A stretch of DNA of 64,000 bases from Candidatus Rokuibacteriota bacterium (GTDB lineage: Bacteria > Methylomirabilota > Methylomirabilia > Rokubacteriales > CSP1-6): NCBI GenBank assembly GCA_016184365.1, contig JACPCW010000075.1:81617-145616 (forward strand), read 5' to 3'. Of this stretch, positions 17,616-51,147 are shown in pieces (the stretch's first letter is position 1; every line of letters starts with the position of its first letter). The position numbers and the translations under genes were made by a program. Under the pieces are notes generated by a model. It saw only the letters and a list, made by a program, of their open reading frames with translations, was not told where the DNA came from and made no database searches.

Positions 17616-17618
17616 CCG

Positions 17619-17828: not shown

Positions 17829-17895
17829 CGTTCGGACTCCTTCCGTCGATCCTACTCTGAAGCTCGCATCCGTTGTCGGCCCAACACCCGGTCGG

Positions 17896-18438: not shown

Positions 18439-18479
18439 GATCTCCTCGCCACGGCGCCCAAGCTGCCGAACGCCCGCGG

Positions 18480-18809: not shown

Positions 18810-18820
18810 GGTGTCGCTCC

Positions 18821-19081
18821 TCACGCCAGCGGCCGAATCCTCTGCAAAGGACGATTGGTGCGCGCCAGTTCCCAATCGTGTTCAAGCGCGTCTCGATGGA
18901 GCTTGCCCCACGTCCTGACGAGCGCAAGAGCCCGCGGTGGCAAGCGACCTTCCAGGACCCGGAGGCTCTGAATCGAGATCACCGCCTCCTGTCCGCCGTA
19001 GATCGCGTGGAAGTGCGGAACCCCGTGATCCCGGTAGTACATGTAGATCACGATGCCGTAGAACTCCGAGATCCTTGGCAT
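18821..19081 (-). CDS. DUF4160 domain protein (partner of DUF2442)
   Basis: MPRISEFYGIVIYMYYRDHGVPHFHAIYGGQEAVISI; adjacent to and upstream of the DUF2442 gene. Confidence 0.6.
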   Translation of the reverse strand: MPRISEFYGIVIYMYYRDHGVPHFHAIYGGQEAVISIQSLRVLEGRLPPRALALVRTWGKLHRDALEHDWELARTNRPLQRIRPLA

Positions 19082-19434
19082 TCGTCCTCACGACTCGTGA
19101 GAGGGTTGAAGTCCGGTCGCCCACTGGGATAGCGTCGCCGAACTAGAAGTCGGTCGTGAGATTGACCGGTCAATGTATCGAGGCACAACCTGCGCGGCAG
19201 TGTCGCTCATCCGCTGGTGTGCACGCCGGCTTGCCTCAGCATATGTCCTTGTTTCGCCGGTGATTTCATGCGATCCGAGTGCCTCGACGGCCTGAGCGCT
19301 CGCCGAAGGGTGGTGCGGGATATCCGGTCGGCCTATTTCGTCGCACTTCCGGGGATTATGCGGCCCCACGCGTTTCCGGCGCGCGGCCGAGCTGGCCGGC
19401 CCCGCTTGCGCAGGACTGGCCGCGCTCCTCGAAT

Positions 19435-20586
19435 TCACGGCCCCTCGTCCTCGATGGTCGGCAGGGTACGGCGCGGGAACTCGCGGTACGCGTGCCGCGC
19501 GAGCGCGGCTTCGTCGAGCTCGAGTCCCAGGCCCGGCGCGGTCGGCAGACGGATGTAGCCGTCTTCGACGACGAACGGCTCGGCCGCGATCGCGTTTCCC
19601 ACCGACTCGAAGTTCACGAAGTACTCCGTGATCAGGAAGTTCGGGATCGCGGCCGACACCTGCAGCGTCGCGGCGAGGCCGATGGTCGTCGAATTGTAGT
19701 TGTGCGGTGACACGACGACGTGATGCGGCTCGGCCATCTGCGCGATCGCGCGGAGCTCGCCGATGCCGCCGCAGTTGCAGACGTCCGGGTTGATGATGTC
19801 GGCGGCGCGCGCTTCGAAGACCGGGCGGAACTCGGCGCGCGTGTACAGCTCTTCGCCGGTCACGACCGGTAAACGGATCGCGCGGCGCACTTCGGCCAGC
19901 GCGTCGATGTCGCGCGACGACACCGGTTCCTCGTACCAGAACGGCCGGAACGTTTCGAGCCGCTCCGCGATGCGGATGGCGTGCATCGGTGCCAGGCGCC
20001 GATGGACTTCGACGAGCACGTCGACGTCTGGACCGACGGCGGCGCGCACTGCGCGGACGTTCTCGACGGCATAGTCTTCCATCACACGAGAGATGTGGGT
20101 GCGCCACGGCCCCGGAAACGGATCGAACTTCAGCGCAGTGAACCCGCGCGCGACCATCTCCTGCGCCTTCGCCGCGAGCGCGTCCGGCGTCTTCGCGGTG
20201 CCGTACCAGCCGTTCGCATACACGCGGATGCGTCGCCGGCACGGCCCGCCGAGCAGATCGTAGACGGGCACGCCGAGCGACTTGCCGCGGATGTCCCAGA
20301 GCGCCTGCTCCAGGCCCGACACCGCGCTCCAGAAATCCATCGCGCCGCGCTTGGCGCCGAAGTCGTGATACGCGACGTGGACGAAGTGGGTGATCTGCGC
20401 CGCATCGCGCCCGACGAGATACCGTCCGAGCGCTTCGACGTGCGCGACGATCGCGCGATCGCGGTCGGCCTGCGTGTAGCACTCGCCCCAGCCATGCACG
20501 CCGGCGTCGGTCTGAACCTTGACGAAGACCCAGTTCTTGCCGGTGCCGGGATGCACGAGGAACGGCGTGACGCCGGTGACTTTCAT
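19435..20586 (-). CDS. mandelate racemase/muconate-lactonizing enzyme (enolase superfamily) protein
   Basis: MKVTGVTPFLV…KFDPF…EEPV… with an MR/MLE-type N-terminal capping domain and barrel. Confidence 0.75.
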   Translation of the reverse strand: MKVTGVTPFLVHPGTGKNWVFVKVQTDAGVHGWGECYTQADRDRAIVAHVEALGRYLVGRDAAQITHFVHVAYHDFGAKRGAMDFWSAVSGLEQALWDIRGKSLGVPVYDLLGGPCRRRIRVYANGWYGTAKTPDALAAKAQEMVARGFTALKFDPFPGPWRTHISRVMEDYAVENVRAVRAAVGPDVDVLVEVHRRLAPMHAIRIAERLETFRPFWYEEPVSSRDIDALAEVRRAIRLPVVTGEELYTRAEFRPVFEARAADIINPDVCNCGGIGELRAIAQMAEPHHVVVSPHNYNSTTIGLAATLQVSAAIPNFLITEYFVNFESVGNAIAAEPFVVEDGYIRLPTAPGLGLELDEAALARHAYREFPRRTLPTIEDEGP

Positions 20587-29288: not shown

Positions 29289-30188
29289 GTGATGATTCAC
29301 GTCCGTATTCCGGCGACGAGCGCGAATCTCGGGCCGGGATTCGACGCCCTCGGTCTGGCCCTCGCGCTCTACAACGAGGTCGAGGCGCGCGACGCCGATG
29401 CCGTGAGCGTCGCGATCGAAGGCCACGGCGCCGGCGACCTCGCGACGGACGCGCGCAACGTCGTCGTGCGCGGCGTGCGGCTCGCGCACGAGGCGGCGGG
29501 CCGCCCGTTCAAGGGCGTGGCGCTCCGATGCGTGAACCGCATTCCGGCGTCGCGGGGGCTCGGGTCGAGCGCGGCGGCGTGGGTCGGCGGCCTGGTCGCC
29601 GGCAACGCGCTCCTCGGCGGAACGCTCGACCGCGACGCGCTGCTGGCGCTCGCGACACGAAGCGAAGGTCACCCGGACAACGTCGCCGCGGCGCTCCACG
29701 GTGGACTCACCGTGTCGTGCCTCGAGGGCGACGCCGTGCGCGCGATCGCGTTGCCGGTGCCGCCGGCGCTCACGTGGGTCGCGCTGATTCCCGAAGTGCG
29801 GAGCGCGACGGCGGAGGCGCGCGCGGTGCTGCCGGCCACCGTTCCGCGCAGCGACGCGATCTTCAACGTGCAGCGTGTCGCGCTGCTGCTCGCGTCCTTG
29901 AGCGCCGGCCGGTTCGAGATGCTCGCGACGGCGCTCGACGACCGGCTGCACCAGCCATATCGGCTGAAGCTCTTTCCGTGGATGCCCGCGGTGGCCGACG
30001 CGGCGCGCGCGGCCGGCGCGGCCGGCTGCGTGCTGAGCGGCGCGGGACCATCGCTGCTCGCCGTGGTTGCCGGCGACGGCACCGCCGTGGCCCGCGCGAT
30101 GGAAGCGGCGCTCGGGGCCGCGCGGATCCAGGGCTCGGCGCACGCGTTCGACGTCGACACCGCGGGGGCAACGGTGAGGGAGGTATGA
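29289..30188 (+). CDS. thrB: homoserine kinase
   Basis: IPATSANLGPGFDALGLAL…PASRGLGSSAAA are GHMP-kinase and ThrB motifs. Confidence 0.8.
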   Translation: MMIHVRIPATSANLGPGFDALGLALALYNEVEARDADAVSVAIEGHGAGDLATDARNVVVRGVRLAHEAAGRPFKGVALRCVNRIPASRGLGSSAAAWVGGLVAGNALLGGTLDRDALLALATRSEGHPDNVAAALHGGLTVSCLEGDAVRAIALPVPPALTWVALIPEVRSATAEARAVLPATVPRSDAIFNVQRVALLLASLSAGRFEMLATALDDRLHQPYRLKLFPWMPAVADAARAAGAAGCVLSGAGPSLLAVVAGDGTAVARAMEAALGAARIQGSAHAFDVDTAGATVREV

Positions 30189-31321
30189 CGGCGACGCGCG
30201 GCGTGCTCGCCTACCAGGAGCTCAAGGCGGCGGTCGCGCAGGGCTGGCTCGTGGCCGGCGCGCCGATCGACGAGCGCCAGTTCCAGCCCGCGAGCCTCGA
30301 TCTCCGGCTCGGCCCCGTCGCGTATCAGCTGCGCGCGAGCTTCCTGCCGTTCCGCGAGACGGTCGAGCGTCGGCTCGTCCATCCCGACGCCGTCGACGTG
30401 GACCTCGTGATCGACCGGCTTTCGCTCGACACGGGCGCGACGCTGCAGCGGCGCTCCGTGTATCTCATCCCGCTCATGGAATCGCTCGCGCTGCCGCCCC
30501 ACGTGCGCGGCCGGACGAATCCGAAATCGACGACCGGCCGGCTCGACATCTTCACGCGCGTGATCACCGACGGCACGCCGCGGTTCGACGAGATTCGCGC
30601 CGGCTATCACGGGCCGCTCTATCTCGAGGTGTCGCCGCAGTCGTTCCCCGTGCGCGTGCACGCCGGCCTGTCGCTGAACCAGCTGCGCCTGTCCTCAGGT
30701 ACGGCCGCGATGTCGGACGCCGACCTCGCCGCGCTGTATCGCGAGTCCCCGCTGCTCTACGACGACGACGATCAGCCGGTCCCGCTCGATCGCGTGGCGT
30801 TCAACGACGGGCTCGGCATGGGCGTCGATCTCTCGGGACGGACGAGCGACGGCATCATCGGGTACCGCGCGCAGCCGAATCCGCCCCTCGTCGACCTGGC
30901 GCGCGTGGGCTTCTATGCGGTCGACGAGTTCTGGGAACCGATCAAGCGGCCGGCGCGCGACTCGTACATCCTCGAAGCGGATCGGTTTTACATCCTCGCG
31001 TCGAAGGAACGAATCCGGGTGCCCCCCGATTACGCTGCTGAGATGGTGGTCTACGATGCGGGCGCCGGCGAGATCCGAACGCACTACGCCGGGTTCTTCG
31101 ATCCCGGGTTCGGGTACGGCGACGGCAGCGTGCTGGGCACGAAAATCGTGATGGAGGTGCGTGCGCGCGAGGTGCCGTTCATGCTCTACGACGGTCAGAC
31201 GTCGTTCAAGGTCTGGTTCGAGCGTCTGTCGAGCCGACCCGAGCGCCTGTACGGGGAGGGGCTCGGATCGTCTTATCAATATCAGACGCTCACGCTATCC
31301 AAACAGTTCAAGCGGACGTGA
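30185..31321 (+). CDS. 2'-deoxycytidine 5'-triphosphate deaminase-like protein (long-form dCTP deaminase/dUTPase fold)
   Basis: 378 aa; SLDLRLG…GRTNPKSTTGRLDIFTR. GAGGGAGG RBS and ATGA overlap with thrB. Confidence 0.6.
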   Translation: MTATRGVLAYQELKAAVAQGWLVAGAPIDERQFQPASLDLRLGPVAYQLRASFLPFRETVERRLVHPDAVDVDLVIDRLSLDTGATLQRRSVYLIPLMESLALPPHVRGRTNPKSTTGRLDIFTRVITDGTPRFDEIRAGYHGPLYLEVSPQSFPVRVHAGLSLNQLRLSSGTAAMSDADLAALYRESPLLYDDDDQPVPLDRVAFNDGLGMGVDLSGRTSDGIIGYRAQPNPPLVDLARVGFYAVDEFWEPIKRPARDSYILEADRFYILASKERIRVPPDYAAEMVVYDAGAGEIRTHYAGFFDPGFGYGDGSVLGTKIVMEVRAREVPFMLYDGQTSFKVWFERLSSRPERLYGEGLGSSYQYQTLTLSKQFKRT

Positions 31322-31482
31322 CGGCGTGCCATAACGTCGCGGTATCCCGACATTGCGAACCGGCAACCGTCTTGCACGATGATAGACTTCGGATAGGGGC
31401 GGCAGAACGAAGCCGCGAGGCGAGTCTGTGAGGGTGGCGACAACCGCCGCACCACACGGTCCGGTGCCCGATGGAGGGCAAG

Positions 31483-31683
31483 ATGGCTGAGCAGAAGCGT
31501 AAAGAGACGCGACCCACGAAGCCCGCCGAAGGCGGAGACGCCGCCGCCGGCAACGCCGAGATCGCCAAGAAGGGCAAGAAGATCAAGGAAGACATCGACA
31601 AGCTGCTGGACGAAATCGACGACATCCTCGAGGAGAACGCCGAGGAATTCGTCAAGAGCTACGTCCAGCGAGGTGGCGAGTAG
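31483..31683 (+). CDS. pup: prokaryotic ubiquitin-like protein Pup (C-terminal GGE)
   Basis: …DIDKLLDEIDDILEENAEEFVKSYVQRGGE is near-identical in pattern to the actinobacterial Pup C-terminal half. GGAGGG lies 5 nt before the ATG; an alternative ATG is at 31471. Confidence 0.75.
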   Translation: MAEQKRKETRPTKPAEGGDAAAGNAEIAKKGKKIKEDIDKLLDEIDDILEENAEEFVKSYVQRGGE

Positions 31684-31686
31684 TCG

Positions 31687-31902
31687 ATGCCGATCTACGA
31701 ATATCGTTGCCGCAGCTGTCAGGGTGATTTCGAGAAGTACGTGCACACGACCGGGACGGCCGTCGCCTGTCCGTCCTGCGCGAGCGACAACGTAATGCGC
31801 AAGCTCTCGGTGTTCGGCCTTCGCAGCGACGGCGGCTCCGTCGCGTCCATGCCCATGGGCGGAGGCGGCGGGTGCTGCGGCGGCGGGTGCGGCTGCCACT
31901 GA
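31687..31902 (+). CDS. FmdB-family zinc-ribbon protein
   Basis: MPIYEYRCRSCQGDFE…CPSCAS… with a Gly/Cys-rich tail. Confidence 0.65.
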   Translation: MPIYEYRCRSCQGDFEKYVHTTGTAVACPSCASDNVMRKLSVFGLRSDGGSVASMPMGGGGGCCGGGCGCH

Positions 31903-31964: not shown

Positions 31965-32047
31965 GGCGTACAATCCGCCCCGATGGATGGGCGAAGCCGC
32001 AGCACGACGCGTAGCCGCAGGCGGAGCGGGTGCGAGGCGAGTCTGTG

Positions 32048-32965
32048 ATGGACCTGCGCCGACTCGAAATCTTCGCCAAGGTCGCCGAGCTCGGCAGTTT
32101 CTCGCGCGCGGCCGAAGCGCTGTATCTCACGCAGCCGACCGTCTCCGAACACATCCGCGCGCTCGAAGACGAGCTCGGCGTGCAGCTGCTCGACCGGCTC
32201 GGGCGCGGCGCCGCGCCGACGCGCGCCGGCCAGCTCTTCCTCGGCTACGCGCACCGTCTGCTCGGTCTCGCCCGCGAAGCGCGTCAGGCGATCGACCAGT
32301 TCCAGGGCCGCATGAGCGGCGAGCTCGTCGTCGGCGGCAGCACGATTCCCGGTGAGTACGTGCTGCCGGCCCTGATCGGCGAGTTCAAGGGCAAGTACCC
32401 CGACATCCTCATCACGCTGGTGATCGGCGACAGCCGCCAGGTGATCGACTGGGTCGAGGAAGGCCGCGTCGAAGTCGGCGTCGTCGGCGCCCGCCCGACC
32501 GCCCGCACGCTCGAGTCACGGGAGCTCATGTCCGACGAGCTCGTCGTCGTCGTGCCGGCCGCGCACCCGTGGGCCGAGCGGGACGACGTCACGCTCGCCG
32601 AGCTGCAGGAACAGCCGCTCATCGTGCGCGAGCACGGGTCCGGCTCGCGCGACGCGATGGAGCGCGCGCTCGCCGAGGCCGGGCTCGATCTCGACGCGTT
32701 CCGCATCGCCGGCGAGATCGGCTCGACGCAGGCGATCAAGCAGGGCGTGCGCGCCGGCGTCGGTGTCGCGCTCATCTCGAAGCGCGCGGTGGAGGACGAG
32801 TGCCGCGCGCGGCTCCTCCGCTGCGTGAAGATCCGCGATTTCCGGGTGTCGCGCGCGTTCCATCTCGTCACGCATCGCGACCGCAGCCGGTCGCCGCTGG
32901 CGGTCGCGTTCCTCGAGTTCATCGAATCCCGGCTGCCGGGCGCGGCATCCCAATCAGCACGATGA
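32048..32965 (+). CDS. LysR-family transcriptional regulator
   Basis: MDLRRLEIFAKVAELGSFSRAAEALYLTQPTVSEHIRALE is an HTH LysR N-terminus. Confidence 0.8.
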   Translation: MDLRRLEIFAKVAELGSFSRAAEALYLTQPTVSEHIRALEDELGVQLLDRLGRGAAPTRAGQLFLGYAHRLLGLAREARQAIDQFQGRMSGELVVGGSTIPGEYVLPALIGEFKGKYPDILITLVIGDSRQVIDWVEEGRVEVGVVGARPTARTLESRELMSDELVVVVPAAHPWAERDDVTLAELQEQPLIVREHGSGSRDAMERALAEAGLDLDAFRIAGEIGSTQAIKQGVRAGVGVALISKRAVEDECRARLLRCVKIRDFRVSRAFHLVTHRDRSRSPLAVAFLEFIESRLPGAASQSAR

Positions 32966-34020
32966 CGGGAAAGGACATCCGCCTCACGTCGTACGCGTCC
33001 TGCGCCGGCTGAGCGTCCAAGATGGCTCCTGGAGATCTCCAGGAGGTGCTCGCGGTGCTCAAGCCGGCGGACCCCGCCGCGCATGAAGCATTGCTCGTCG
33101 GGCTCGGCCGCGCGGACGACGCGGCGGTGTATCGGCTGGCGCCCGATCTCGCGATCGTCGAAACGGTGGACTTCTTTCCGCCGGTCGTCGACGACGCGTA
33201 CACGTGGGGCGCGATCGCGGCGGCCAACGCGATGTCGGACGTCTACGCGATGGGCGGGCAGGTGCTCTTCGCCCTCGCGATCGCCGGCTTTCCGCGTGAG
33301 CTGCCGAAGGCCGTCATCAGGGAAGTCTTCCGCGGCGGCGCGGAGAAGGTCGCCGAGGCCGGCGGCGTCATCGCCGGCGGTCACACCGTCGTCGACAACG
33401 AGCCGAAGTACGGTCTCTGCGTCACCGGGCGCGTGCATCCCGACCGCGTGCTGACGAAGGGCGGCCTGCGGGCCGGCGACCGGTTGTTCCTGTCGAAGCC
33501 GCTCGGCACGGGGGTCATCACGACGGGCGCGAAGAACGACGTCGCGAGCGCCGACGTCCTCGACGGCGCCGTGCAGAGCATGCTGCGGCTCAACCGCGTG
33601 GCGGCGGAGGTTGCGTGCGAACGCGGCGCGCATGGCGCGACGGACATCACCGGCTTCGGTCTGCTCGGCCATCTCGGCGAGATGGTGGAAGCCTCGGGTG
33701 TCGGCGCCATCATCCGAGCCTCGCGGCTGCCCGTTCTGCCAGGCGCGCTCGCGCTCGCGGAGCAGGGGCAGTTCAGCGGCGGGATGAAACGGAACCGGCG
33801 CCACGTCGATGCGGTGTTCGGTCCGCGGCTCACCGTCGACGCGTCGGTGCCCGAGGTCGTCGCCTCGCTGGCCGCCGAATCCGAGACGTCGGGCGGGCTG
33901 CTGTTTTCCGTCGCGCCCGCCGAAGCGTCACGGGTGCTCGACGACTTCGCGAAACGCGGCGAGGAGTGCTTCGAGATCGGCGAAGTCATCGCCGATCGCG
34001 CCATCCGCCTCCTCGCCTGA
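32962..34020 (+). CDS. selD: selenide, water dikinase (selenophosphate synthetase), Sec-containing form with UGA at codon 17
   Basis: From ATG 32962 the frame reads MTGKDIRLTSYASCAG-TGA-ASK and continues, with no frame change, into ORF 33022..34020, which has a SelD/AIR-synthase-like body. The TGA falls in the conserved Cys/Sec position. ATGA overlap with the lysR stop. Confidence 0.7.
33025..33044 (+). other. candidate SECIS hairpin for selD (perfect palindrome CTCCTGGA-GATC-TCCAGGAG)
   Basis: 8-bp stem and 4-nt GAUC loop, 12 nt downstream of the in-frame UGA. Confidence 0.4.
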
Positions 34021-34110: not shown

Positions 34111-34166
34111 ACGCTTGGCCCGTATCTAAAGGCACATTGCGCAATCCACTGTCCTGGGGGCATCGA

Positions 34167-35027
34167 ATGCGTCGCCTTCTTGCGCTGGTCCTGGTGTTCT
34201 GTGCGGTCGCAGCTCCGGCCGTCGTCTCCGCGGACAAGCCGGACGTGCTCCGGATCTCCGCCATTCCGGACGAGAACCCGAACGAGCTGATGCGGATCTA
34301 CACGCCGTTCGCCGAGTACCTCGCGAAGGAGCTCGGCATGAAGGTGCAGTTCACGCCTGTCGTCGATTACGCGGCGACCGTCGAAGGGCTCGCCGCGAAG
34401 AAGCTCGACCTCGTGTGGTACGGCGGGTTCACGTCGGTTCAGGCGGTGAAGCGCACGAGCGGCAGCGCGAAGCGGCTCATCCTTCGTCAGGAAGACGCCG
34501 AGTTCAAATCGGTCTTCGTGGCGAAGCCGGGCTCCGGCATCAGGACGCTCGCCGACCTGAAGGGCAAGAGCTTCGCGTTCGGCTCGGTGTCCTCGACGTC
34601 GGGACACCTGATGCCGCGCTACTTCCTGCTGAAGTCCGGTGTCGCGCCCGATCGTGAATTCAAGCGGATCGCGTTCTCCGGCGCGCACGACGCGACGGCG
34701 CTCTGGGTGGAATCCGGAAAGGTGGACGCCGGCGCGCTCAACTTCCTCGTGTGGGAGAAGCTCGTCCAGCAGAAGAAGGTCGACGTCGGCAAGGTCGACG
34801 TGTTCTACACCACGCCGCCGTACGTCGACTACGTCTGGACCGCGCGTGGCGATCTGGACCGCGGCGTTACCGACAAGCTCGTCGCCGCGTTCCTGAAGCT
34901 CGACTACGCGAATGCCGAGCATCGGAGGCTCCTCGACCTCCACCGGACGAAGAAGTACATCCGCGCCAACGATGCCGACTGGAAGAGCATCGAAGAGGCG
35001 GCCGTCGAGGCCGGACTCCTGAAGTAA
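34167..35027 (+). CDS. phnD: phosphonate ABC transporter substrate-binding protein
   Basis: Signal peptide MRRLLALVLVFCAVAAPAVVSA followed by a PhnD-like body (…YGGFTSVQA…SGH…). The ORF reports an in-frame TTG at 34137. Confidence 0.75.
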   Translation: MRRLLALVLVFCAVAAPAVVSADKPDVLRISAIPDENPNELMRIYTPFAEYLAKELGMKVQFTPVVDYAATVEGLAAKKLDLVWYGGFTSVQAVKRTSGSAKRLILRQEDAEFKSVFVAKPGSGIRTLADLKGKSFAFGSVSSTSGHLMPRYFLLKSGVAPDREFKRIAFSGAHDATALWVESGKVDAGALNFLVWEKLVQQKKVDVGKVDVFYTTPPYVDYVWTARGDLDRGVTDKLVAAFLKLDYANAEHRRLLDLHRTKKYIRANDADWKSIEEAAVEAGLLK

Positions 35028-35036: not shown

Positions 35037-35861
35037 GTGTACCGGCTTCGCGAGATCACGAAGGTCTTCGGCCGCGAGACGTCCGCCCTCGACGGCGTCA
35101 CGCTGCACGTGGCCCCGGGCGAGCACGTCGCGGTCATCGGCCCGAGCGGGGCGGGGAAGACCACGCTGTTCCGGCTGCTGAACCTGGCGCTGCGGCCGAC
35201 GTCCGGCTCGCTGCGCTTCGAAGGCGCCGACGTCGCGACCCTGTCCGACGCCGCGCTGCGGCAGGCACGGACGCGCATCGGCACGATCTACCAGCAGCAG
35301 AACCTCGTCGGCCGCCTGCGTGTCGTCCACAACGTGCTCGCCGGCCATCTCGGCCGGTGGTCGACGGCGGCGGCGCTCGCGTCGCTCGTCCGGCCGCGCG
35401 AGGTCGAGACGGCGAGCGCCGCGCTCGCGCGCGTGGGCATCGGCGAGAAGCTCTACGCGCGAACCGACGAGCTCTCCGGCGGCCAGCAGCAGCGGGTCGC
35501 GATCGCGCGGGTGCTCGTGCAGGATCCGGACGTCGTGCTCGCCGACGAGCCGGTGTCGTCGGTCGATCCCTCGCTCGCGGTGACGCTCATCACGCTCCTC
35601 CGCGATCTCTCGGACGAATCGCGGAAGACGCTGCTCGTGAACCTGCACAGCGTCGACCTGGCGCTGTCGTTCTTCCCTCGCATCGTCGGGGTGCGCGCCG
35701 GCCGTGTCGCGTTCGATCTCCCGCCGGACCGCGTCACGGTGGATCTGCTCGAAGCGCTGTATGCCGGCGATCGCGACGACGAGGCGCAGCTCGAACGCCT
35801 GAGAGATGGCTACGATCCCTTCGGACGCGCCTGTCGCCCGCTCACTGGCTTCCGACCGTAA
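35037..35861 (+). CDS. phnC: phosphonate ABC transporter ATP-binding protein
   Basis: Walker A GPSGAGKTT, signature LSGGQQQRV, Walker B VVLADEP. Confidence 0.8.
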   Translation: MYRLREITKVFGRETSALDGVTLHVAPGEHVAVIGPSGAGKTTLFRLLNLALRPTSGSLRFEGADVATLSDAALRQARTRIGTIYQQQNLVGRLRVVHNVLAGHLGRWSTAAALASLVRPREVETASAALARVGIGEKLYARTDELSGGQQQRVAIARVLVQDPDVVLADEPVSSVDPSLAVTLITLLRDLSDESRKTLLVNLHSVDLALSFFPRIVGVRAGRVAFDLPPDRVTVDLLEALYAGDRDDEAQLERLRDGYDPFGRACRPLTGFRP

Positions 35862-36672
35862 GTCGGGTTTTCCCTGGCTGCTCGCGGTTGCGTTCGCGCT
35901 GACGCTCGTCGGCTCGCTGCGCGTCGCGGAGGTCGATCCGCGGCTGCTCGTCGAGCGTGACGCGCTCGCCAACGTCGGCCGGTTCGTGGCCGGCGCGTGG
36001 CCGCCGCGCGTCTCCGCCGAGTTCCTCGGTCTCATGGCGCGTCCCGTCGCCGAGACGATCCAGATCTCCGTCACCGGAACGCTCTTCGCCGTCCTGATCG
36101 GGTTCCCGCTCGGGATCCTCGCGACGTCGACGCTCATGTGGCGCGGCGTGCTGCACGAGCGCCGCGTGCAGCGCCGGCGCTGGCTGCTCGGGCTGCCGGT
36201 CTACGCGGTCGCGCGCGCCCTGCTGTCGGTGTTCCGTGCGATCCCCGAATACGTCTGGGCCTTCATGTTCGTGCGCGCCGTCGGGCTGGGTCCGTTTCCC
36301 GGGGTCCTCGCGATCGGCATCGCGTACGGCGGCATGCTCGGCAAGGTCTATTCCGAGATTCTCGAGAGCGTCGACCCGCGACCGCTCGAGACGTTGCAGG
36401 CCGCGGGCGCCTCGCGCATGGCCGTCGTGTTCTATGGCCTCGTCCCGCAGGCGCTGCCGACGTTCGTGTCGTACACGCTGTACCGCTGGGAGTGCGCGAT
36501 CCGTGCCTCGGCGATCCTCGGCTTCGTCGGCGCCGGCGGGCTCGGGCAGCAGATCGAGCTGTCGATGCGGATGTTCCAGTTCGACGAGGTCCTGACGCTG
36601 CTCGCGACGCTCTTCGTCCTGGTCGCGCTCGTGGATTTCATCAGCGGTCGCCTGCGCGCGAGGCTCCTGTGA
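35806..36672 (+). CDS. phnE: phosphonate ABC transporter permease
   Basis: PhnE-like membrane protein. The start is uncertain because it overlaps the phnC 3' end. Confidence 0.7.
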   Translation: MATIPSDAPVARSLASDRKSGFPWLLAVAFALTLVGSLRVAEVDPRLLVERDALANVGRFVAGAWPPRVSAEFLGLMARPVAETIQISVTGTLFAVLIGFPLGILATSTLMWRGVLHERRVQRRRWLLGLPVYAVARALLSVFRAIPEYVWAFMFVRAVGLGPFPGVLAIGIAYGGMLGKVYSEILESVDPRPLETLQAAGASRMAVVFYGLVPQALPTFVSYTLYRWECAIRASAILGFVGAGGLGQQIELSMRMFQFDEVLTLLATLFVLVALVDFISGRLRARLL

Positions 36673-37523
36673 GTCGCCCGCCGGCCGCGATGACCGTCCG
36701 CCCGGCGCGCGCGCCGGCGTCGTGGGCCATCGCCGCCGCCGCCGTGGCGCTCGTCGTCTGGTCCGCGCATGGCGCGGGCGTCGACTTCGTCACGCTGTTC
36801 GGCGGCGAAGCCATCCGACAGATCGGGCTGTATGTCGCCAGGCTGTTCCCGCCGGATCTCTCGCCCGTCGCGCTGCGCGCGGCGGCGGTCGGCGCGGTCG
36901 AGACGTTTGCGATCTCGTTCGTCGGCTCGCTGCTGTCCGTCATGATCGCGCTGCCGCTCGCGATCGCGACGATGCGGACGCTGCTCTATCGCGGCGCGCT
37001 CTACGAAGGCCAGCAGCTCCATGCGTCACGGCGGCTGGCCGGCGTCGCGGTGTACGCGGCCGCGAAGGCGATCCTGAACGTGCTTCGCACGATCCCGGAG
37101 ATCGTCTGGGCGCTCATCTTCGTGTTCATGGTCGGGCTCGGACCGTTCCCCGGGGTCCTGGCACTCGGCCTCCACACGGGCGGGGTGCTCGGCAAACTCT
37201 TCGGCGAAGTGCTCGAAGACGTCGATCCGCGTCCGCTCGAGGCGTTACAGGCGACCGGTGCGACGCGGCGGCAGATCCTGCTCTATGGTGTCCTGCCGCA
37301 GGCGGCCCCGCAGTTCCTGTCCTACGCGCTCTATCGATGGGAAGTGAACATCCGCGCGGCCGCGATCATGGGCTTCGTCGGGGCGGGCGGCCTCGGTTCT
37401 CAGATTCACATCGCGATCAGCCTCTTCCTCGAACAGCAGCTCCTGACGCTGATCCTCGCGGTCTACGTGATCGTGACGCTGGTGGACGCGCTGAGCGCGT
37501 GGCTGCGCTCGCGGCTGGTCTGA
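36669..37523 (+). CDS. phnE: phosphonate ABC transporter permease (second)
   Basis: GTGA overlap. Paralogous to the upstream phnE (…GLGPFPGVLA…). Confidence 0.7.
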   Translation: MSRPPAAMTVRPARAPASWAIAAAAVALVVWSAHGAGVDFVTLFGGEAIRQIGLYVARLFPPDLSPVALRAAAVGAVETFAISFVGSLLSVMIALPLAIATMRTLLYRGALYEGQQLHASRRLAGVAVYAAAKAILNVLRTIPEIVWALIFVFMVGLGPFPGVLALGLHTGGVLGKLFGEVLEDVDPRPLEALQATGATRRQILLYGVLPQAAPQFLSYALYRWEVNIRAAAIMGFVGAGGLGSQIHIAISLFLEQQLLTLILAVYVIVTLVDALSAWLRSRLV

Positions 37524-37911: not shown

Positions 37912-38964
37912 ATGGCTCCCTCTGTGGCGCTGCTGACGCCGTTCGCATTTCCGTCGCTTCGGGGGAATGCGGTGACGGTGGAGCGCATCGCCCGCGGCCT
38001 CGCCGAGCGTGGCGTCGCGCTGCGCGTGTGGGACCTGTCGGCGACGGGGGAGTCGCGCGTCGCCGAGGAGGTCGATGCCGGGCGCCCGGCGCTCATTCAC
38101 GCGTTCCACGCCTGGCGCGTCGGGCCGCTCGCGCTGCGCGTGGCGCGACGGCTCGAGGTCCCGCTGATCGTGACGCTGACCGGCACCGACGCGAACCACG
38201 ATCTCTTCGATCCGGACCGCGCCGCCGTCGTCCGCCGCGTGCTCGAGGGGGCGGCGGCCATCGTCGTCTTTCACGACTCGGTCGGCGCGCGCGTCGCGGC
38301 CGCGCTGCCGGACGTCGCCGCGCGCCTCGTCGTCATCCCGCAGGCCGCCACGCTCCGGACGGAACCGTACGAGCTCGCCGCGCGTTGGGACCTGCCGGAG
38401 GACCGCGTCCTGTTCCTGTTCGCGGGAGGCATCCGACCGGTCAAGCGTCCGCGCTTTCCGTTGCGGCCGTTCGCGCAGCTCGTGGAACGCCACCCGCGCG
38501 CGCGTCTCGCGTACGCCGGACCGGTGCTCGATCGGATCGAGGGCGAGGCGCTGATGCGCGAGCTGGAGGGCCGCGGATGGGCGCGATACCTCGGCGCCGT
38601 GCCGCACGGGCAGATGGCGTCATTGTTGCGGGCAGCCGACGTCGTCGTGAACTGCTCCGAGTCGGAAGGTGGGATGGCGAACGCAATTCTCGAGGCGTTC
38701 GCCGTCGGTCGCGCCATGCTGGCCGCCGATATCCCCGGCAATCGCTCACTCGTTCAGCACGACGTGACGGGCCTGCTGTTTTCTGATGCAGGAACTTTCT
38801 TGGCCGGCGCCGAGCGGCTGACGACGGATTCCGCGCTGCGGGACCGTCTGGGACGCGCCGGACGTCAGCGTGTGGAGCGGGATCACCCACCCGGGCGCGA
38901 AATCGACGACTATCTGGCCCTGTATCGCCGTTTCGTTGCCGTGCCGGCGGGCCGCGCGTGTTGA
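37912..38964 (+). CDS. glycosyltransferase family 4 (GT-B)
   Basis: A C-terminal EGGMANAILEAFAVGRAMLAADIPG (E-x7-E type) motif. Confidence 0.75.
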   Translation: MAPSVALLTPFAFPSLRGNAVTVERIARGLAERGVALRVWDLSATGESRVAEEVDAGRPALIHAFHAWRVGPLALRVARRLEVPLIVTLTGTDANHDLFDPDRAAVVRRVLEGAAAIVVFHDSVGARVAAALPDVAARLVVIPQAATLRTEPYELAARWDLPEDRVLFLFAGGIRPVKRPRFPLRPFAQLVERHPRARLAYAGPVLDRIEGEALMRELEGRGWARYLGAVPHGQMASLLRAADVVVNCSESEGGMANAILEAFAVGRAMLAADIPGNRSLVQHDVTGLLFSDAGTFLAGAERLTTDSALRDRLGRAGRQRVERDHPPGREIDDYLALYRRFVAVPAGRAC

Positions 38965-39046: not shown

Positions 39047-40060
<1,014 letters not shown>

Positions 40061-40074: not shown

Positions 40075-41520
40075 ATGTCGCACACCGAAGCGCTTGACCG
40101 GCTCGTACGCCAGGTCGTGAGCCAGGTGCGGTGGCGGCGGGCGGAGCACTACGCGCTCCGCGGGCTCTTCTGGGGCCTCGTCGTCGCCGTCGTGCTGCTG
40201 CTCGTGAAAGGACCGCTCGCCGTCTGGGCGGCTCCGTTCGGCATCGCGGCGATCGCCGCCGGTGCGCTCGGCGGTCTGCTCTACGGCTTCGTCCGGCGCG
40301 TCGGTCCGCTCGACGCCGCGCGCCTCGCGGACCGCGCGTTCGGCCTCGCCGACCGCGTGACGACGGCGCTCGAGTGCGCGAAGCGACCCGAGGCCGGTCC
40401 GATGATCCAGTCCCTGCTCGCGGATGCGGGCGCGCGCGTCGGGCAGCTGAAGATCAGGCAGATCGTCCGGCGCGTCGTGCCGCGCGAGGCGAAGCTGCTG
40501 CCGGTACCGCTGATCGCCGCGGTCGTGCTCGCGCTCGCGCCGCCGGTGCCGATGCCGTCCGGCCGGCTGTTCGACACCACGGCGTCGACGGCGGAAGACG
40601 AGACCAAGGAGCGGGTCGCGTCGACGATGCTCGAAGACCGGGCGCGGCCGATGCCGCGCGACCCGATGCGGCGGCCGTCGTTCGAGGAGCGGGACTACAT
40701 GCAGCGCGGCGCGTCCGGCGCGCCGTCCGCGCAGGGCGACCTCGCCGCGATCTTCAAGGACACGTCGCTCGCGAGCCAGCGGCCGGACTTCAACAGCTTC
40801 CTCAAGAAGGGCGACGAGCGTCTCAAGATGCTCGAGCAGGTCGACCGTCTGCCGGACCTCCAGTCCGACTTCACCCAGAGCCAGTACAAGATGGTCTTCC
40901 GCAAGTCGAAGGCGCTCCGCGGCGGCATGCGTCCGGATCAGATCTCGCCCGACAAGCTGCGCGAGCTGCTGCAGGAGATGGAGCGGCTCGGGCGCAAGGG
41001 CAATCAGAACTGGTCGCAGGACGCGATGGAAGGCATGGACGCGCTCGAGGGCGGCAACCAGGACAAGGCGCTCGAGGCGATGGAGAAGGCGCTCAACAAG
41101 ATGCGCGCCTCCGAGGAAGCGAGGCGCTCGGGCAAGAACCTGCGCGGCGGGAAAGACGATCGCGCGAGCCGCGGCGACGGGACGCGCGGCAGCGGCGGCC
41201 CCGAGGACCAGGACTTCGGCGAGGGCGAAGGCATGATGCCCGGCAAGGGCCGCAGCCCGTCACCGAAGGGCGACGCCACGCAGCGCCTGCGCGCGAATCC
41301 GTTCGACGCCGGCGTCGAAGGCGAATCGCGCCGCGGTCGCAAGGACGGCTACGACACGAACATGACCGGCCGCGGCGGCAAGATGGAATCGCGGATGCAG
41401 TACCTCGGCGTCATCGGCCAGTACCGCAAGATGATGGAGGACTCGATCGCGCGCGAGCAGGTGCCTCGCGACTTCCACGGCCAGATCAAGGACTACTTCC
41501 AGTCGCTGGACGAGCGCTAG
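40075..41520 (+). CDS. hypothetical membrane-anchored, charged/coiled-coil protein in the MoxR operon
   Basis: N-terminal TM helices followed by a low-complexity, K/E/R-rich region. Confidence 0.45.
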   Translation: MSHTEALDRLVRQVVSQVRWRRAEHYALRGLFWGLVVAVVLLLVKGPLAVWAAPFGIAAIAAGALGGLLYGFVRRVGPLDAARLADRAFGLADRVTTALECAKRPEAGPMIQSLLADAGARVGQLKIRQIVRRVVPREAKLLPVPLIAAVVLALAPPVPMPSGRLFDTTASTAEDETKERVASTMLEDRARPMPRDPMRRPSFEERDYMQRGASGAPSAQGDLAAIFKDTSLASQRPDFNSFLKKGDERLKMLEQVDRLPDLQSDFTQSQYKMVFRKSKALRGGMRPDQISPDKLRELLQEMERLGRKGNQNWSQDAMEGMDALEGGNQDKALEAMEKALNKMRASEEARRSGKNLRGGKDDRASRGDGTRGSGGPEDQDFGEGEGMMPGKGRSPSPKGDATQRLRANPFDAGVEGESRRGRKDGYDTNMTGRGGKMESRMQYLGVIGQYRKMMEDSIAREQVPRDFHGQIKDYFQSLDER

Positions 41521-41522: not shown

Positions 41523-42413
41523 GTGCCCGCCCTCGACCGTCAGACGCTGTTCGCGCCAGAGTTCCTGGCGCAGCTCGAGCGCCTGTCGCTCGCCTCGCGG
41601 CGCGTGTTCCGCGGCCGGGTGAAAGGCGAGCGCAAGAGCCCGCGGCGCGGGCACAGCGTCGAGTTCTGCGACTACCGCGCGTATGGCGTGGGCGACGACC
41701 TGCGCTACGTCGACTGGAACATCTACGGGCGCCTCGATCGCCTCCACGTGAAGGTGTTCGTCGACGAGGAAGACCTCTGCCAGCACCTGCTCGTCGATGC
41801 GTCGGCCTCGATGGACTTCGGGCGCCCGACGAAGTTCGAGTACGCCGCGAAGCTCGCGGCCGCGCTCGGCTTCATCGGCCTCGTGAACCTCGAGCGCGTC
41901 GGCGTCGGCATCCTGAAGGAGCGCGGCGGGGAGGGCTGGGCGCCCACGCGCGGCCGGAACCAGTTCGGTCCGCTGGTCGATTTCCTCGCGCGCGTGAAGC
42001 CCGACGGCGCCACGCGGCTGAACGACGCGATCACCGGCTACGCGATGCGCTCGCGCGAGCCCGGCCTGGCCGTCGTCGTGTCGGATCTGCTCGATCCGCT
42101 CGGCTTCGAAGCCGGCATCCGCGCGCTGCTCGAGCGGCGCTTCGACGTGCACGTCATCCATCTCCTCGATCCGCAGGAGGTCAATCCCGAGTTCGGCGGT
42201 GACCTGCGCCTGATCGACGCCGAGACCGGCGAGCCCCGGGAGATCACCGTCGACGGGGAGGCCATCCGCGCCTACCGCGAGCGTCTCCACCAGTTCCTCG
42301 AGCGCGTCGAGACGTTCTGCCGTACGCGTGAGCTCGGCTACCACCGCGTCATCACGGACACGCCGGCCGAGGAATTCGTGCTGGCGCAGCTGAAGGGCCT
42401 CGTCCTGACATGA
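41523..42413 (+). CDS. DUF58 (vWA-like) protein of MoxR operons
   Basis: …RRGHSVEFCDYRAYGVGDDLRYVDWN… is the DUF58 hallmark. GTG start. Confidence 0.75.
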   Translation: MPALDRQTLFAPEFLAQLERLSLASRRVFRGRVKGERKSPRRGHSVEFCDYRAYGVGDDLRYVDWNIYGRLDRLHVKVFVDEEDLCQHLLVDASASMDFGRPTKFEYAAKLAAALGFIGLVNLERVGVGILKERGGEGWAPTRGRNQFGPLVDFLARVKPDGATRLNDAITGYAMRSREPGLAVVVSDLLDPLGFEAGIRALLERRFDVHVIHLLDPQEVNPEFGGDLRLIDAETGEPREITVDGEAIRAYRERLHQFLERVETFCRTRELGYHRVITDTPAEEFVLAQLKGLVLT

Positions 42414-45400
42414 GTTTCCTGTCACCGATCGCCTTCGCGGTCTTCGCGCTCTCGCTGCCGCTCGTGCTGCTGTACTTCCTCAAGGTGCGGCGGCGCGAAC
42501 GGCGCGTGCCGAGCCTGTTCCTCTGGGGCTCGGAGCTGCGCGACCGCGAGGCCTCCGCGTTCTTCCAGCGCCTGCAGCGCGACCCGCTGCTGCTCCTCCA
42601 GGTGCTCGCGCTGCTGATGCTGTCGCTCGCGCTCGCGCGGCCGGCGCTCACGGTCATGGGGGTCGGCGCGCAGAAGGTCGTCGTCGTGCTCGACGCGTCG
42701 GCGTCGATGAAATCCCGCGACGTCGCGCCGTCGCGATTCGCCGTCGCGCGGAGCGAGGCGGTGTCGCTCGTGTCGCGGCTCGGCGAGGGCGCCGAGGTGA
42801 TGGTCATCGAGGCGGGCGTGCAGCCGCGCGTGATCGTCCCGCTCGGCCGCGACCGCGACCGCGCGATCGCCGGGATCCGTGCCATGCACGCGCGCGACCT
42901 GCCGAACCGGCTGACCGAGGCCGTGCGCACGGCCCGCGCGCTGGTCGGCGACGATCCGCGCGCGCAGATCCACGTCTTCACGGACGGCGCCTACACGCTG
43001 GCCGAGTCGCCGGAGACGTCGGACGGCCGGATCCGCTGGGTCGGCATCGGACGCGGCGGCCACAACGTCGGCATCACGAATCTCGCCGTCCGGAAGACGT
43101 ATTACGGGACGTTCGACCACCAGGCCTTCGTCTCGCTCGTGAACTACACGGCGGAGACGCAGACCTTCAGCTTCAAGATCGAGGTCGGCGACGGCGTCAT
43201 CGCGGAGAAGTCCGTGACCCTCGAGCCGAGCGTCCGGCGCTCGGTCGTCGTTCCGTTCAGCCACAACGGTGGCGGCACGGTGACGGCGCGTCTCAGCGTG
43301 TCGGACGACCTCGAGGCCGACAACGTCGCGTGGGCCGTGCTGCCGCCGACGCGGAAGATCAAGGTTCACCTCGTCAGTCCGGGCAACCTGTTCCTCGAAA
43401 AAGTCCTCAAGACGGACCCGCAGGTCGAGTACGAGGTGAAGACGCCCGAGGAGTACCAGGGCGGGATGGGCGAGGCCGACGTCGTCATCATCGACTCCGT
43501 CAACCCGACGCGCGTGGGCCCCGGCCGGTTCGTGTTCGTGAACGGCGTGCCGTCCGACGTGCCCCTCGAGCTCCTCGGCCGCATGGAGCGTCCGACGATC
43601 ATGGACTGGGACCGGAAGCATCCGGTCATGCGCCACGTCGAGTTCGCCAAGGTCGCCATCGAGGAAGCGGTGCGCATGCGGCCGCTCGCCGCCGGCCGCT
43701 CGCTCGTCGAGGCCGTTGGCGGCCCGCTGATCTACGCGCTCGAGGAAGCCGACCGCAAGGCCGTGTTCGTCGGCTTCGATCTGTTCAAGACGGACTTCCC
43801 GCTGCGCGTGGCGTTCCCGCTGATCCTGTCGAACTCGCTGCGCTGGCTGCATCCAGCCGGTCTCGACCAGACGAGCCTGCAGCTCGCGTCGGGCCAGCCG
43901 ATCCTGGTGCCCGTCGAGCACGGCGTGAGCACGGTGACCGTCAGCACCCCGCGCGGGCGCTCCGTGAAGGGACAGGTCACGCGGGGCGTGGTGTCCTTCA
44001 CGGAGACCGACGAGGTCGGCGTCTACACGCTCGCGACGGCCAAGGGCGACATCCGCATCGCCGTCAACCTGATGGACGCCGACGAATCCAACGTCGCGCC
44101 GCGGCCGTTGCCGGCGCACGCCCAGGCGACGCCGGCGGCGTCCGCGCCCCTGCCGATCCAGCGTGAGCTGTGGCCCCTGTTCGTGATGCTCGCCGCCGCG
44201 CTCCTCGCGCTCGAGGGCTTCCTCTACTGGCGGCGGCAGGCCGGCGGCCGGCTCCGCGTGCCGGCGAACATGTCGGACCGCTGGGCCCTCGGTCTGCGCA
44301 CGGCGCTGGTCGTGATCCTGCTCGCCACGCTGGCGCGTCCGACCGTGCCGCGCTGGGTCGACCGCATGAACGTGATGTTCCTGCTCGACGTGTCGGACAG
44401 CGTGAGCCTCGCCGCCCGCGAGCGCGCGTGGCGGTTCGTGAACGAAGCCGCGAAGCACATGAAGCCCGGTGACAAGAACGGCGTGGTCGTCTTCGGCGAG
44501 CACGCCGTGGTCGATCAGTCGCTCGCGAATCGCGGCGCGCCGGACCGGCCGAAGGCGGAGATCGGCGGCCGCGGCACCAACCTCTTCCAGGGGCTGCAGC
44601 TGGCGCTCGCGAGTCTCGCGCCGGGGCAGGCGAACCGCATCGTCATGCTGACGGACGGTCGCCAGAACGCCGGGAACGCACTCTCCGCGGCGCAGGCGGC
44701 GAAGAACGCGGCGATCGACGTCCATTACGTCGCCGCGCCGCTGACGTTCTCCCAGGAAGTCGTCGCCGAGGCGATGGTCCTGCCGCAGGAAGTGAAGTTC
44801 GGCGAGCCGTTCCAGGCGAAGGTCGTCGCCTGGAGCCTCAAGGACACGCAGGGGCGCCTGTCGCTCTTCCGGAACGGCGAGTTCCTCGGATCGCAGGTCG
44901 TCCGCCTGTCGGCCGGCAAGAACGTCTTCAGCTATCGGCAGTCGCTCGACTCGAGCGGCATCCACGTCTACCAGGCGGCGCTCGAGATCGAGGGCGACAC
45001 GATCGAGGACAACAACCGCGCGGTCGGTACCGTCGTCGTGCGCGGCCGGCCGCAGGTGCTGATCGCGGACAAGGACAAGAGCCACGCCGGCTCGCTGGCG
45101 GCTGCGCTTCGCTCGCAGAACATCGACGTGACGGTCGTCGAGCCGTCCGGGATTCCGCAAGACCTCGCCGGCCTGCAGAAGTACGACGGGCTGATCCTGT
45201 CGAACGTCTCGTCGCTGAAGCTGACGCGTCCGCAGATGGGCCACATCCGCGACTACGTCCGCGAGCACGGCGGTGGACTGATGATGCTCGGCGGCGAGGA
45301 GAGCTTCGGTCTCGGCGGCTACTACCGCACGCCGATCGAGGAAGCGCTGCCCGTCACGATGGAGGTCAAGCAAAAGGTCGAGATCCCGAGCCTCGCGGTC

Positions 45401-46790
45401 GTGCTGTCGATCGACCGGTCCGGCTCGATGGCGATGTCGACGGACGAGAAGATCACGAAGCTCGATCTCGCGAAGGAGGCCGCGCACCTCGTCGTCGATC
45501 TGCTCGACGAGCGCAACGAGGTCGGCGTCCAGAGCTGGGACACCGAGTTCCTCTGGGACGTCGGGATCCGGTCCGCGCGCGACAAGCAGGCGATCCATCA
45601 CGCGATCGCGACGGTGAAGGCCGGCGGCGGTACCGACGGCTATCCGGCGCTGAAGGACTCGTACGCGCAGCTGTTCGAGCGCCCGGCGCTGCTCAAGCAC
45701 GTGATCTTCCTGTCCGACGGCCAGATGACGCGCGGTGATTTCGCCGGGCTCCTGCGCCGCATGGTGAAGGACAAGATCACCGTCTCGAGCGTCGCGATCG
45801 GCAAGGACGCGGACGTGCCGCTGATGGTCGACATCGCGAAGTGGGGGCGCCTACTACACGGAAGACTCGCAGACGATTCCGCGCATCTTCACGCTGGAGA
45901 CGCAGCTCGCGTCCAAGGCGTCGCTGATCGAGCAGCCGTTCAAGCCGCAGCTCACCGCACCCGGGCACGAGGCGATGCAGGATATCGACTGGAAAGCCGT
46001 GCCGCCGCTCGGCGGCTACGTCGCGGCGACCGTGAAGTCGACCGCGGAGCTCGTGCTGATGAGCCACCAGGAAGACCCCGTCCTGGCGACCTGGCGCTAC
46101 GGCCTCGGCCGCACCGTCGCGTTCACGTCCGACGCGAAAGCGAAGTGGGGCGTGCTCTGGCTCCGGTGGCGCGACTTCAACAAGTTCTGGGCGCAGCTGA
46201 CGCGGTGGACGCTCCGCAGCGGCACCCGGAGTGACACCGTCGCGCGCGTGGATCGCCGCGACGAGGTCGGCGAGGTCATCGTCGACGCGGTCGACGGCAA
46301 GGGCGATTTCATCAACTTCCTCGACTCCCAGGTCGGGGTCGTCGCGCCGGACCGCGAGCGCACGGTGATCGATCTGGAGCAGGTGGGACCCGGCCGGTAT
46401 CGCGGGCGGTTCCCGGCGCCGAAGGAAGGCGTGTACCTCGTGGGCATGGCGCAGCGCCGCGGCGAGCGGGTCGTCGGCTCGCAGCTCGCGGGGCTGGTGG
46501 TACCGTATGCGCAGGAACTCCGGGACCTCGGCGTGGACGAGGTCCTCCTGAAGGAGATGGCGGACCTGACGGGCGGCACCGCGGTGGCGGACCCGAAGGA
46601 CGTCTTCCTCAAGGCGCGGCGGCAGTCGAGGATCGCGGTCGAGATCTGGCCGTGGCTCGTCGGGCTGGTCGCGCTCATGATGCTCCCCGAGATCGCGATT
46701 CGACGCCTCGGCGGCGGCGTGATCAGCTCCCTGATCGCACGCTTCGGCAGCCGACGTGGCGGCGAGCCCGGACGGGAGGAACGCGCATGA
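42410..46790 (+). CDS. giant BatA/BatB-like protein with three vWA domains; reading frame broken at poly-G 45843-45847 (sequencing error or authentic frameshift/pseudogene)
   Basis: ORF 42410..46234 encodes N-terminal TM helices (BatA-like) and vWA domains (VVVLDASASM, MFLLDVSDSV, VVLSIDRSGSM). After …DIAKWG the protein continues in ORF 45975..46790's frame (…YYTEDSQTIPRIFTLETQL…). Confidence 0.55.
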
Positions 46791-51106: not shown

Positions 51107-51147
51107 GAGCGGGATGTGACGCACATCCTGTCGAGGAGACCGATGCG

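Follow-up and report, generated by a model that had tools for sequence, protein, structure and literature searches.

The window analyzed here is a 64,000-nucleotide (nt) stretch of the genome of Candidatus Rokuibacteriota bacterium (GenBank assembly GCA_016184365.1, contig JACPCW010000075.1), and all coordinates below refer to it. On its plus strand, at 32962–34020, lies selD, the gene of selenide, water dikinase, with 352 codons and a stop. Codon 17 of this gene is a UGA (33010–33012), and a stem-loop at 33026–33045 follows it closely. The gene of a LysR-family regulator ends where selD begins, and genes of a putative selenate transporter lie downstream. We hold it very probable that selD is a genuine selenoprotein gene, the UGA of codon 17 being read as selenocysteine (Sec).

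The start codon of selD, ATG at 32962–32964, is read directly from the sequence. From there the frame runs MTGKDIRLTSYASCAG-TGA-ASKMAPGDLQEVL and on into the body of the gene, and the next stop is reached only at 34018–34020 (TGA). The start overlaps the stop codon of the LysR gene (TGA, 32963–32965) in an ATGA. In all of this, and in placing the UGA at codon 17, an earlier note on this DNA was right. The 15 codons 5′ of the UGA score 0.31 in this frame, as against −0.79 and −0.33 in the other two (scores computed on the window), and the coding score stays in frame on both sides of the UGA. Codon scores drop just 3′ of the UGA both here and in the second Sec-UGA gene of the window, a member of the UGSC family described below, as would be expected if RNA structure overrides codon preference.

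Gene callers begin the gene later. A mechanical list of open reading frames (ORFs) starts selD at ATG 33022 and gives it 332 amino acids (aa). The approximately 120 closest SelD proteins in the databases are 321–333 aa long, and those that were retrieved begin with MAPGDLQEVL or later. Thus, the N-terminal truncation of SelD by gene callers is real and systematic; the earlier note had named both the start at 33022 and the loss of the catalytic N-terminus.

The identity of the product was examined on the 352-residue read-through translation with the UGA written as Cys. It matches the SelD equivalog TIGR00476 with 355.1 bits (cutoff 125), residues 7–321 being aligned to profile positions 1–310 of 311. 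The first profile position falls on residue 7 and hence within the segment 5′ of the UGA. A second family, NF002098, is matched with 315.5 bits (cutoff 299). The protein has the two-domain build of the AIR-synthase-related (PurM-like) proteins: PF00586 (AIRS) covers residues 52–158 and PF02769 (AIRS_C) residues 170–349. Escherichia coli SelD (PDB 3u0o) aligns over residues 3–349 (E = 1.7e-65), and its IRLTQYSHGAGCGCK pairs with IRLTSYASCAG[U]ASK. The UGA is thereby placed on Cys17 of the E. coli protein, and Lys20 is conserved, as are the motifs DDAAVY, DFF..VDD, NA.SD..AMGG and TD.TGFG. In E. coli, Cys17 binds selenide and a C17S mutant is catalytically inactive (PMC3956282). Since the UGA falls on Cys17 and TIGR00476 aligns from its first position, this segment, and no other part of the gene, encodes the catalytic loop. 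The earlier note had put the UGA at the conserved Cys/Sec position, and had proposed alignment with SelD homologues as the check; the alignment leaves that reading standing. The matches support the view that the product is a selenophosphate synthetase, which would make selenophosphate from selenide at the expense of ATP.

Related loci carry the same arrangement. The comparative set consists of 80 loci obtained by scanning species-representative genomes; it includes metagenome-assembled genomes (MAGs) of Rokubacteria/Methylomirabilota (about 66–79% identity) and Chloroflexota (about 48–58%). The loci were translated in frame 5′ of each match, and the alignment of the Rokubacteria type comprises 45 sequences. 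The upstream translations of the related loci contain a conserved motif, [IV]RLTxYAxCAG-stop-A[SAG]K. At the Sec position, 78 of the 80 loci have the codon TGA and the other two (L065 and L075) have TGC (Cys); TAA or TAG occurs in none. Sec or Cys occupies the Cys17 position, and Lys the position three residues on, in 81 of 81 sequences. The start itself, MTGK[D/E]IRLT, is common to selD of the window and six of the loci (L001, L004, L010, L016, L019 and L021). Over the 11 codons 5′ of the UGA, variable columns number 4, 1 and 11 at the first, second and third codon positions, respectively, in the 45 sequences, and pairwise differences are 3120 synonymous vs. 1426 nonsynonymous. This pattern of substitution indicates that the codons 5′ of the UGA are under purifying selection in the SelD frame.

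The start chosen by the gene callers corresponds to a rival account, in which the TGA at 33010 is a true stop, a 332-residue SelD is made from ATG 33022, and the 16 upstream codons are untranslated or make a separate peptide. ORF lists and the database entries of relatives do use this ATG or a later one, and the Rokubacteria-type clade keeps an ATG four codons past the UGA. The product, however, would have neither Cys/Sec17 nor Lys20, and Cys17 is needed for catalysis (PMC3956282). Moreover, purifying selection acts on the upstream codons, which align to the SelD profile from position 1 on, and the two TGC loci read straight through. In many relatives of the Sec type the residue after the xxK is Ala, Leu, Arg or Val, not Met, which leaves them without a start at this place. 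No Shine-Dalgarno motif precedes 33022. We regard initiation past a true stop as highly improbable. It should also be considered that a single base change turns TGC into TGA, as would be required if the gene were a pseudogene with a nonsense mutation or if a TGC or TGG had been miscalled in sequencing or assembly. The same TGA recurs in 78 genomes that were assembled independently in many studies, and the remainder of the gene is undamaged, with the score of a complete SelD, so that the likelihood of a decayed gene or an error is negligible.

We return to selD as a gene read through its UGA. The active-site region has a further conserved feature. A Cys is found three residues before the Sec (Cys14, 33001–33003), giving C-x-x-U, in 74 of 81 sequences; the remaining seven have Ala. 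The two Cys-type loci carry C-x-x-C. The Cys at +2 of the E. coli type occurs in none of the 81 sequences. Cys14 may act as a resolving cysteine, joined to Sec17 in a selenenylsulfide.

The selenocysteine insertion sequence (SECIS) is represented by the stem-loop at 33026–33045 on the plus strand. The 20-nt palindrome CTCCTGGAGATCTCCAGGAG folds into a perfect 8-base-pair (bp) stem (CUCCUGGA/UCCAGGAG) closed by a GAUC loop, as the earlier note had described it. The gap between the TGA and the stem is 13 nt (GCGTCCAAGATGG, 33013–33025), not the 12 nt given there. The loop begins 21 nt 3′ of the UGA and the hairpin has a folding energy of −12.6 kcal/mol. The published model of bacterial SECIS elements (bSECIS; PMC13188914) specifies a loop of 3–9 nt, an upper stem of 4–16 bp, a G within the first two positions of the loop, a UGA-to-loop distance of 16–37 nt, and a minimum free energy (MFE) of −7.5 kcal/mol or less. 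With 4 nt, 8 bp, G first, 21 nt and −12.6 kcal/mol, the hairpin agrees with the model on every count.

The codons that encode the hairpin suggest that its sequence is kept for reasons other than the protein. The G+C content at third codon positions (GC3) of the genome is 0.90, and the codons of the 5′ arm are rare in it: GCT makes up 1.7–2.7% of Ala codons, CCT 4–6% of Pro codons and GGA 4–6% of Gly codons. Among the 39 loci that encode MAPGDLQE, GCT and CCT are nevertheless fixed in all 39 and GGA in 38. The U of the loop, which comes from the Asp codon GAT (21–25% usage), is also fixed in 38 of the 39. Pairing is conserved as well. In the 45 sequences, 97.8% of the stem pair cells are standard pairs, as against 38–61% (at most 60.6%) when the 3′ partner is slid by one to three columns, and the observed covariation score was reached in none of 500 shuffles. 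Double changes occur at three stem pairs, and two events are securely inside the clade. The first is a compensatory change from C-G to G-C at the outer pair, alignment columns 17/36, in L034, L037 and L039, where it entails replacing Ala with Gly and Glu with Asp. The second changes U-A to C-G at columns 21/32 in L039 and costs a Gln to Arg replacement. L041 shares the change at 17/36, but its hairpin is otherwise degraded. A change from G-C to C-G at 23/30 was discounted as covariation support, as L043, which has it, carries another type of hairpin. RNAalifold independently predicts the same upper helix. Codon fixation and covariation together indicate that the hairpin is under selection at the RNA level. 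With the model agreement above, they bear out the proposal of the earlier note that it fits a bacterial SECIS.

A lower helix may extend the element (33012–33050, plus strand). It would pair the A of the UGA and the following GC (33012–33014) with GCU (33048–33050), and G33024 with U33047. The consensus pairs that RNAalifold gives for it are 3/41, 4/40 (GC in 38 sequences, GU in 7), 5/39 and 15/38; the MFE fold of the single sequence extends the helix to 33061. The lower helix shows no double changes, and the evidence for it is weaker than for the upper stem; it is best taken as a possible part of the structure.

A palindrome so well conserved could also act at the DNA level, for example as an operator for a dimer of the adjacent LysR protein, and not as an RNA signal. 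The perfect palindrome contains AGATCT and is nearly invariant in about 40 species. Moreover, all pairs within the clade are Watson-Crick, and covariation among them cannot tell symmetry of the DNA from pairing in the RNA. Its location, on the other hand, is inside a coding region and at the spacing from the UGA that is expected of a SECIS, and in other Sec-type selD genes, including the example from BSepDB discussed below, hairpins of other types occupy this zone. None of the hairpins of the Cys-type loci agrees with the bSECIS model, whereas the Sec-type loci L061, L072 and L079 have one that does. At the same spacing in the UGSC gene there is a hairpin unrelated to the palindrome, and it has G-U pairs. 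That the palindrome is an operator instead of a SECIS therefore appears very unlikely, and a dual role in DNA and RNA is possible.

The SECIS reading is also informed by the hairpins of other SelD genes. Outside the Rokubacteria-type clade (L044–L080), two other hairpins are found within the first 60 nt past the Sec codon, and some loci have both. One is of the form GGGUCC-NNN-GGACC, with its loop about 17 nt from the UGA, and occurs in the Chloroflexota relatives and in L042 and L043. The other is GGCGCAG-GUN-CUGCGCC, with its loop 33 nt from the UGA. In the Cys-type L065 and L075 the hairpin is lost or degraded below the model limits, and the nearest Sec-type loci (L061, L072 and L079) have one. 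This absence matches the reported decay of SECIS elements after conversion of Sec to Cys (PMC1794560).

Several observations weigh against reading the gene as a selenoprotein gene with a SECIS. (i) The loop, G-A-U-C, departs from N(0-1)G[G|U]N..., the pattern usual in the SECIS loops of bacteria, which is described as holding “mostly” and hence is not defining (PMC13188914). (ii) Rfam gave no SECIS match, either in the whole window at the gathering threshold or in 32900–33200 at E values up to 10, where only two matches at chance level appeared. Rfam coverage of bacterial SECIS elements is limited and a match is not defining. (iii) The z-score of the 61-nt fold is just −1.8, and nine of 200 shuffled sequences fold equally well. 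(iv) In a window of 69% G+C, perfect 8-bp hairpins with a 4-nt loop are common (n = 6); with loops of 3–9 nt there are 76 placements, as compared with about 35 in simulated sequence. The rarity of the palindrome was for this reason rejected as an argument. (v) No Shine-Dalgarno motif was found before ATG 32962 in a scan of the window, nor before ATG 33022; the scans for Shine-Dalgarno motifs, promoters and terminators did not discriminate between the two starts. (vi) Neither selA nor selB was found in the 64 kb, as judged from a rough gene call with Pfam and NCBIfam searches of candidates, and (vii) the window has no tRNA, tRNA-Sec included. The significance of the case for the UGA and the hairpin derives from the comparative evidence, which is very strong; the window sequence by itself goes only weakly beyond chance.

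The UGA might instead be read through mainly as a residue other than Sec, as Cys by way of tRNA-Sec under selenium limitation, or as Trp by a near-cognate tRNA. Cys functions at this position in E. coli SelD and is encoded in L065 and L075, and the circular dependence of a Sec-containing SelD on itself would make a selenium-independent bootstrap attractive. That 78 of 80 loci retain the TGA, and with it a hairpin dedicated to the purpose, is, however, the signature of SelB-dependent decoding and not of leaky read-through. TGA is moreover the ordinary stop of the LysR gene, of selD itself and of both permease genes downstream, which means that UGA has not been globally reassigned in this genome, and the UGSC gene has the same architecture as selD. 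Decoding of the UGA mainly as a residue other than Sec is thus very improbable. Such read-through is conceivable only as a minor or conditional route.

The UGSC gene (14032–14562, plus strand) encodes a (seleno)protein that matches NF041046 with 142.8 bits (cutoff 125). Its in-frame UGA, at 14311–14313, lies in the motif VAGIGD-U-GSCSSG, and ORF callers split the gene there. A 10-bp hairpin with G-U pairs and a GUG loop begins 9 nt past the UGA, the loop being at 19 nt. As in selD, the start overlaps the stop of the preceding frame (ATGA), here that of a 345-aa ORF for which Pfam and NCBIfam gave no match. A scan of the window for Sec-UGA genes based on GC3 returned UGSC and about 15 antisense-frame artefacts. 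A whole-window scan at a strict threshold returned nothing, missing even selD and UGSC, and a recalibrated scan returned selD and one antisense artefact at 32518. The presence of a second Sec-UGA gene in the window supports the view that the organism uses Sec.

We picture the reading of selD as a Sec-encoding gene as follows. Translation would start at ATG 32962, overlapping the stop of the selenium-associated LysR gene. By analogy with characterized bacteria, whose pathway consists of SelA, SelB, tRNA-Sec and the SECIS (PMC13188914), SelB with GTP and Sec-tRNA(Sec) would bind the stem-loop at 33026–33045 and deliver Sec once the UGA has reached the A site of the ribosome. The resulting SelD would have 352 residues, with Sec17 and Lys20 in a flexible N-terminal loop, Sec replacing the Cys17 that binds selenide. 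As selenophosphate is the selenium donor for Sec synthesis, SelD would depend on its own product, which would constitute a positive feedback.

The operon context is consistent with such a role. The LysR-family regulator of the selenium-metabolism type (32030–32965, plus strand; the true start is likely ATG 32048) matches NF040786 (LysR_Sec_metab) with 309.3 bits (cutoff 250) and has the HTH_1 and LysR_substrate domains. In 40 related loci, too, a LysR gene immediately precedes selD in the same orientation. Downstream of selD, and all on the plus strand, is what looks like an importer of the ATP-binding cassette (ABC) type. The gene at 34137–35027 (its start may be ATG 34167) encodes a periplasmic binding protein with a Phosphonate-bd domain that matches TIGR04553 (ABC_peri_selen) with 334.7 bits (cutoff 250), and is the putative selenate-binding component. 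It is followed by the gene of a PhnC-like ATPase at 35037–35861 (TIGR02315, 253.2 bits, just under the cutoff of 266.1) and by two PhnE-type permease genes at 35806–36672 and 36690–37523 (TIGR01097, 234.3 and 245.1 bits, cutoff 216.7). The binding-protein gene 3′ of selD, the ATPase gene 3′ of it and the permease genes are conserved in seven related loci. Selenate as substrate and the regulatory role of LysR are putative assignments that derive from annotation. Plausibly, and this is speculation, SelD, LysR and the importer form a selenium-responsive, self-reinforcing unit.

A tRNA-Sec was found in none of the Rokubacteria-type loci and only beside selD in two Chloroflexota loci, L053 (1831–1927) and L054 (5782–5878). 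There the tRNA-SeC gene (anticodon TCA) lies about 110–125 nt 5′ of a Sec-type selD.

Upstream of LysR, a gene for the prokaryotic ubiquitin-like protein Pup (31471–31683, plus strand; TIGR03687, 63 bits) and an FmdB-family zinc-ribbon gene (31687–31902, plus strand) stand between the LysR gene and a dCTP deaminase gene (30185–31321). The gene order dCTP deaminase–LysR–selD is kept in 35 related loci. Just 3′ of the transporter genes is a family 4 glycosyltransferase gene (37912–38964, plus strand). Its product is weakly similar to SenB, the selenosugar synthase for selenoneine, but was rejected as such, with 108 bits where the cutoff is 300; the GT4 of the GPMC system is matched best, at 374 bits with a cutoff of 400. 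Next come a MoxR-type AAA ATPase gene (39065–40060), a 481-aa ORF (40075–41520, plus strand) that has a strong coding score and no Pfam or NCBIfam match, and a 1274-aa gene (42410–46234) whose product has an N-terminal double-transmembrane domain and a vWA-like region. No gene was called in 16873–19435 by the rough codon-usage caller, and the G+C content there is 0.59–0.67 as compared with 0.69 for the window.

At 50672–58734, 23 kb from selD, lies a region that, by eye from the N-termini, appears to serve the assembly of iron-sulfur clusters (IscR/IscS/IscU/IscA/HscB/HscA/Fdx-like). The Isc-like genes are followed by three small minus-strand ORFs that resemble DsrE/TusB. A second class-V aminotransferase gene, cysteine desulfurase-like, is at 57212–58366 (Aminotran_5, 275 bits) and is accompanied by a NifU-like gene. 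NifS-like enzymes are known to donate selenium to SelD in E. coli.

Selenoproteins of this family are well known. FdhA and SelD are the two most widespread selenoprotein families of bacteria (PMC1794560), and Sec-type SelD is frequently misannotated, which is a systematic error (PMC13326102). The Sec-type SelD of Haemophilus influenzae was compared biochemically with E. coli SelD in 1999 (Lacourciere and Stadtman, cited as ref. 28 in PMC3266270). The window gene shares with it the family, Sec at the position of E. coli Cys17, a coding-region hairpin directly 3′ of the UGA, and the dependence on its own product selenophosphate. The host here is an uncultured lineage of Rokubacteria/Methylomirabilota, and the motif differs. 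In the window it is S-C-A-G-U-A-S-K, with a Cys at Sec-3 and none at +2, whereas the E. coli type, and presumably the Haemophilus motif too, is G-A-G-C/U-G-C-K. E. coli SelD corresponds in Cys17 (for Sec17), Lys20 and the Asp/Asn motifs of the AIR-synthase-like fold. It has Cys for Sec and therefore no recoding signal, and its gene is not known to be preceded by a LysR_Sec_metab gene. The SelD of Aquifex aeolicus (PDB 2yye and 2zod; E = 4.7e-59) has the motif SSGCAAKVGPGDLQEIL, which is very close to SCAG[U]ASKMAPGDLQEVL, although it lacks the Cys at Sec-3. The native protein, we take it, is of the Sec type and was crystallized as a Cys mutant.

The SelD of Acetomicrobium mobile is also of the Sec type (BSepDB, PMC13326102), with LRLTELARTSGUAAKLGPADL, and has a canonical SECIS predicted over the same Gly-Pro...Asp-Leu codons. 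That SECIS is of the GGGUCC-NNN-GGACC type, as in the Chloroflexota relatives, L042 and L043. The hairpin of the window's clade differs from it in being longer (8 bp), in having its center about 4 nt further downstream, and in its loop, GAUC in place of GGC or similar. The fdhF SECIS of E. coli offers a further comparison. Like the hairpin of selD, it is a coding-region stem-loop directly 3′ of the UGA with a G and a U in its apical loop and a possible lower helix that takes in part of the UGA codon. It has a GGUC loop and a bulged U in the stem, whereas the loop here is GAUC and the stem is perfect.

Seen against these systems, selD is a correct re-annotation within a class of Sec-type SelD that has been known since the 1990s and is widespread, not a discovery. 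Mildly new are the clade-specific GAUC-loop hairpin, shifted with respect to the usual SelD SECIS, and the CxxU motif. One may go further and propose that both the recoding element of SelD and the chemistry of its active site arose separately within the Rokubacteria-type clade. The proposal joins four parts: the near-invariant 20-nt palindrome, whose GAUC tetraloop is non-canonical and whose position is displaced from that of the SelD SECIS in other phyla; a co-evolved SelB specificity that the palindrome would imply; a conserved Cys-x-x-Sec that might, as a selenenylsulfide, act as a redox switch of the catalytic loop; and an overlapping LysR gene and selenate importer that would give a self-reinforcing circuit for sensing selenium, in a phylum whose selenoproteomes are unusually large. 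Taken jointly, we find this proposal rather doubtful.

In closing, the finding leaves the understanding of Sec recoding and of SelD function unchanged, and its main value is for annotation. The deposited SelD proteins of the closest relatives of the window lack the catalytic N-terminus, and any inference about selenium metabolism, or any expression experiment, that started from the deposited sequences would rest on an inactive fragment. One Methylomirabilota MAG is reported to have the largest predicted bacterial selenoproteome, with 63 genes (PMC13188914). As a gene, selD marks the organism as a Sec user, which fits the reports of very large selenoproteomes in the Methylomirabilota.

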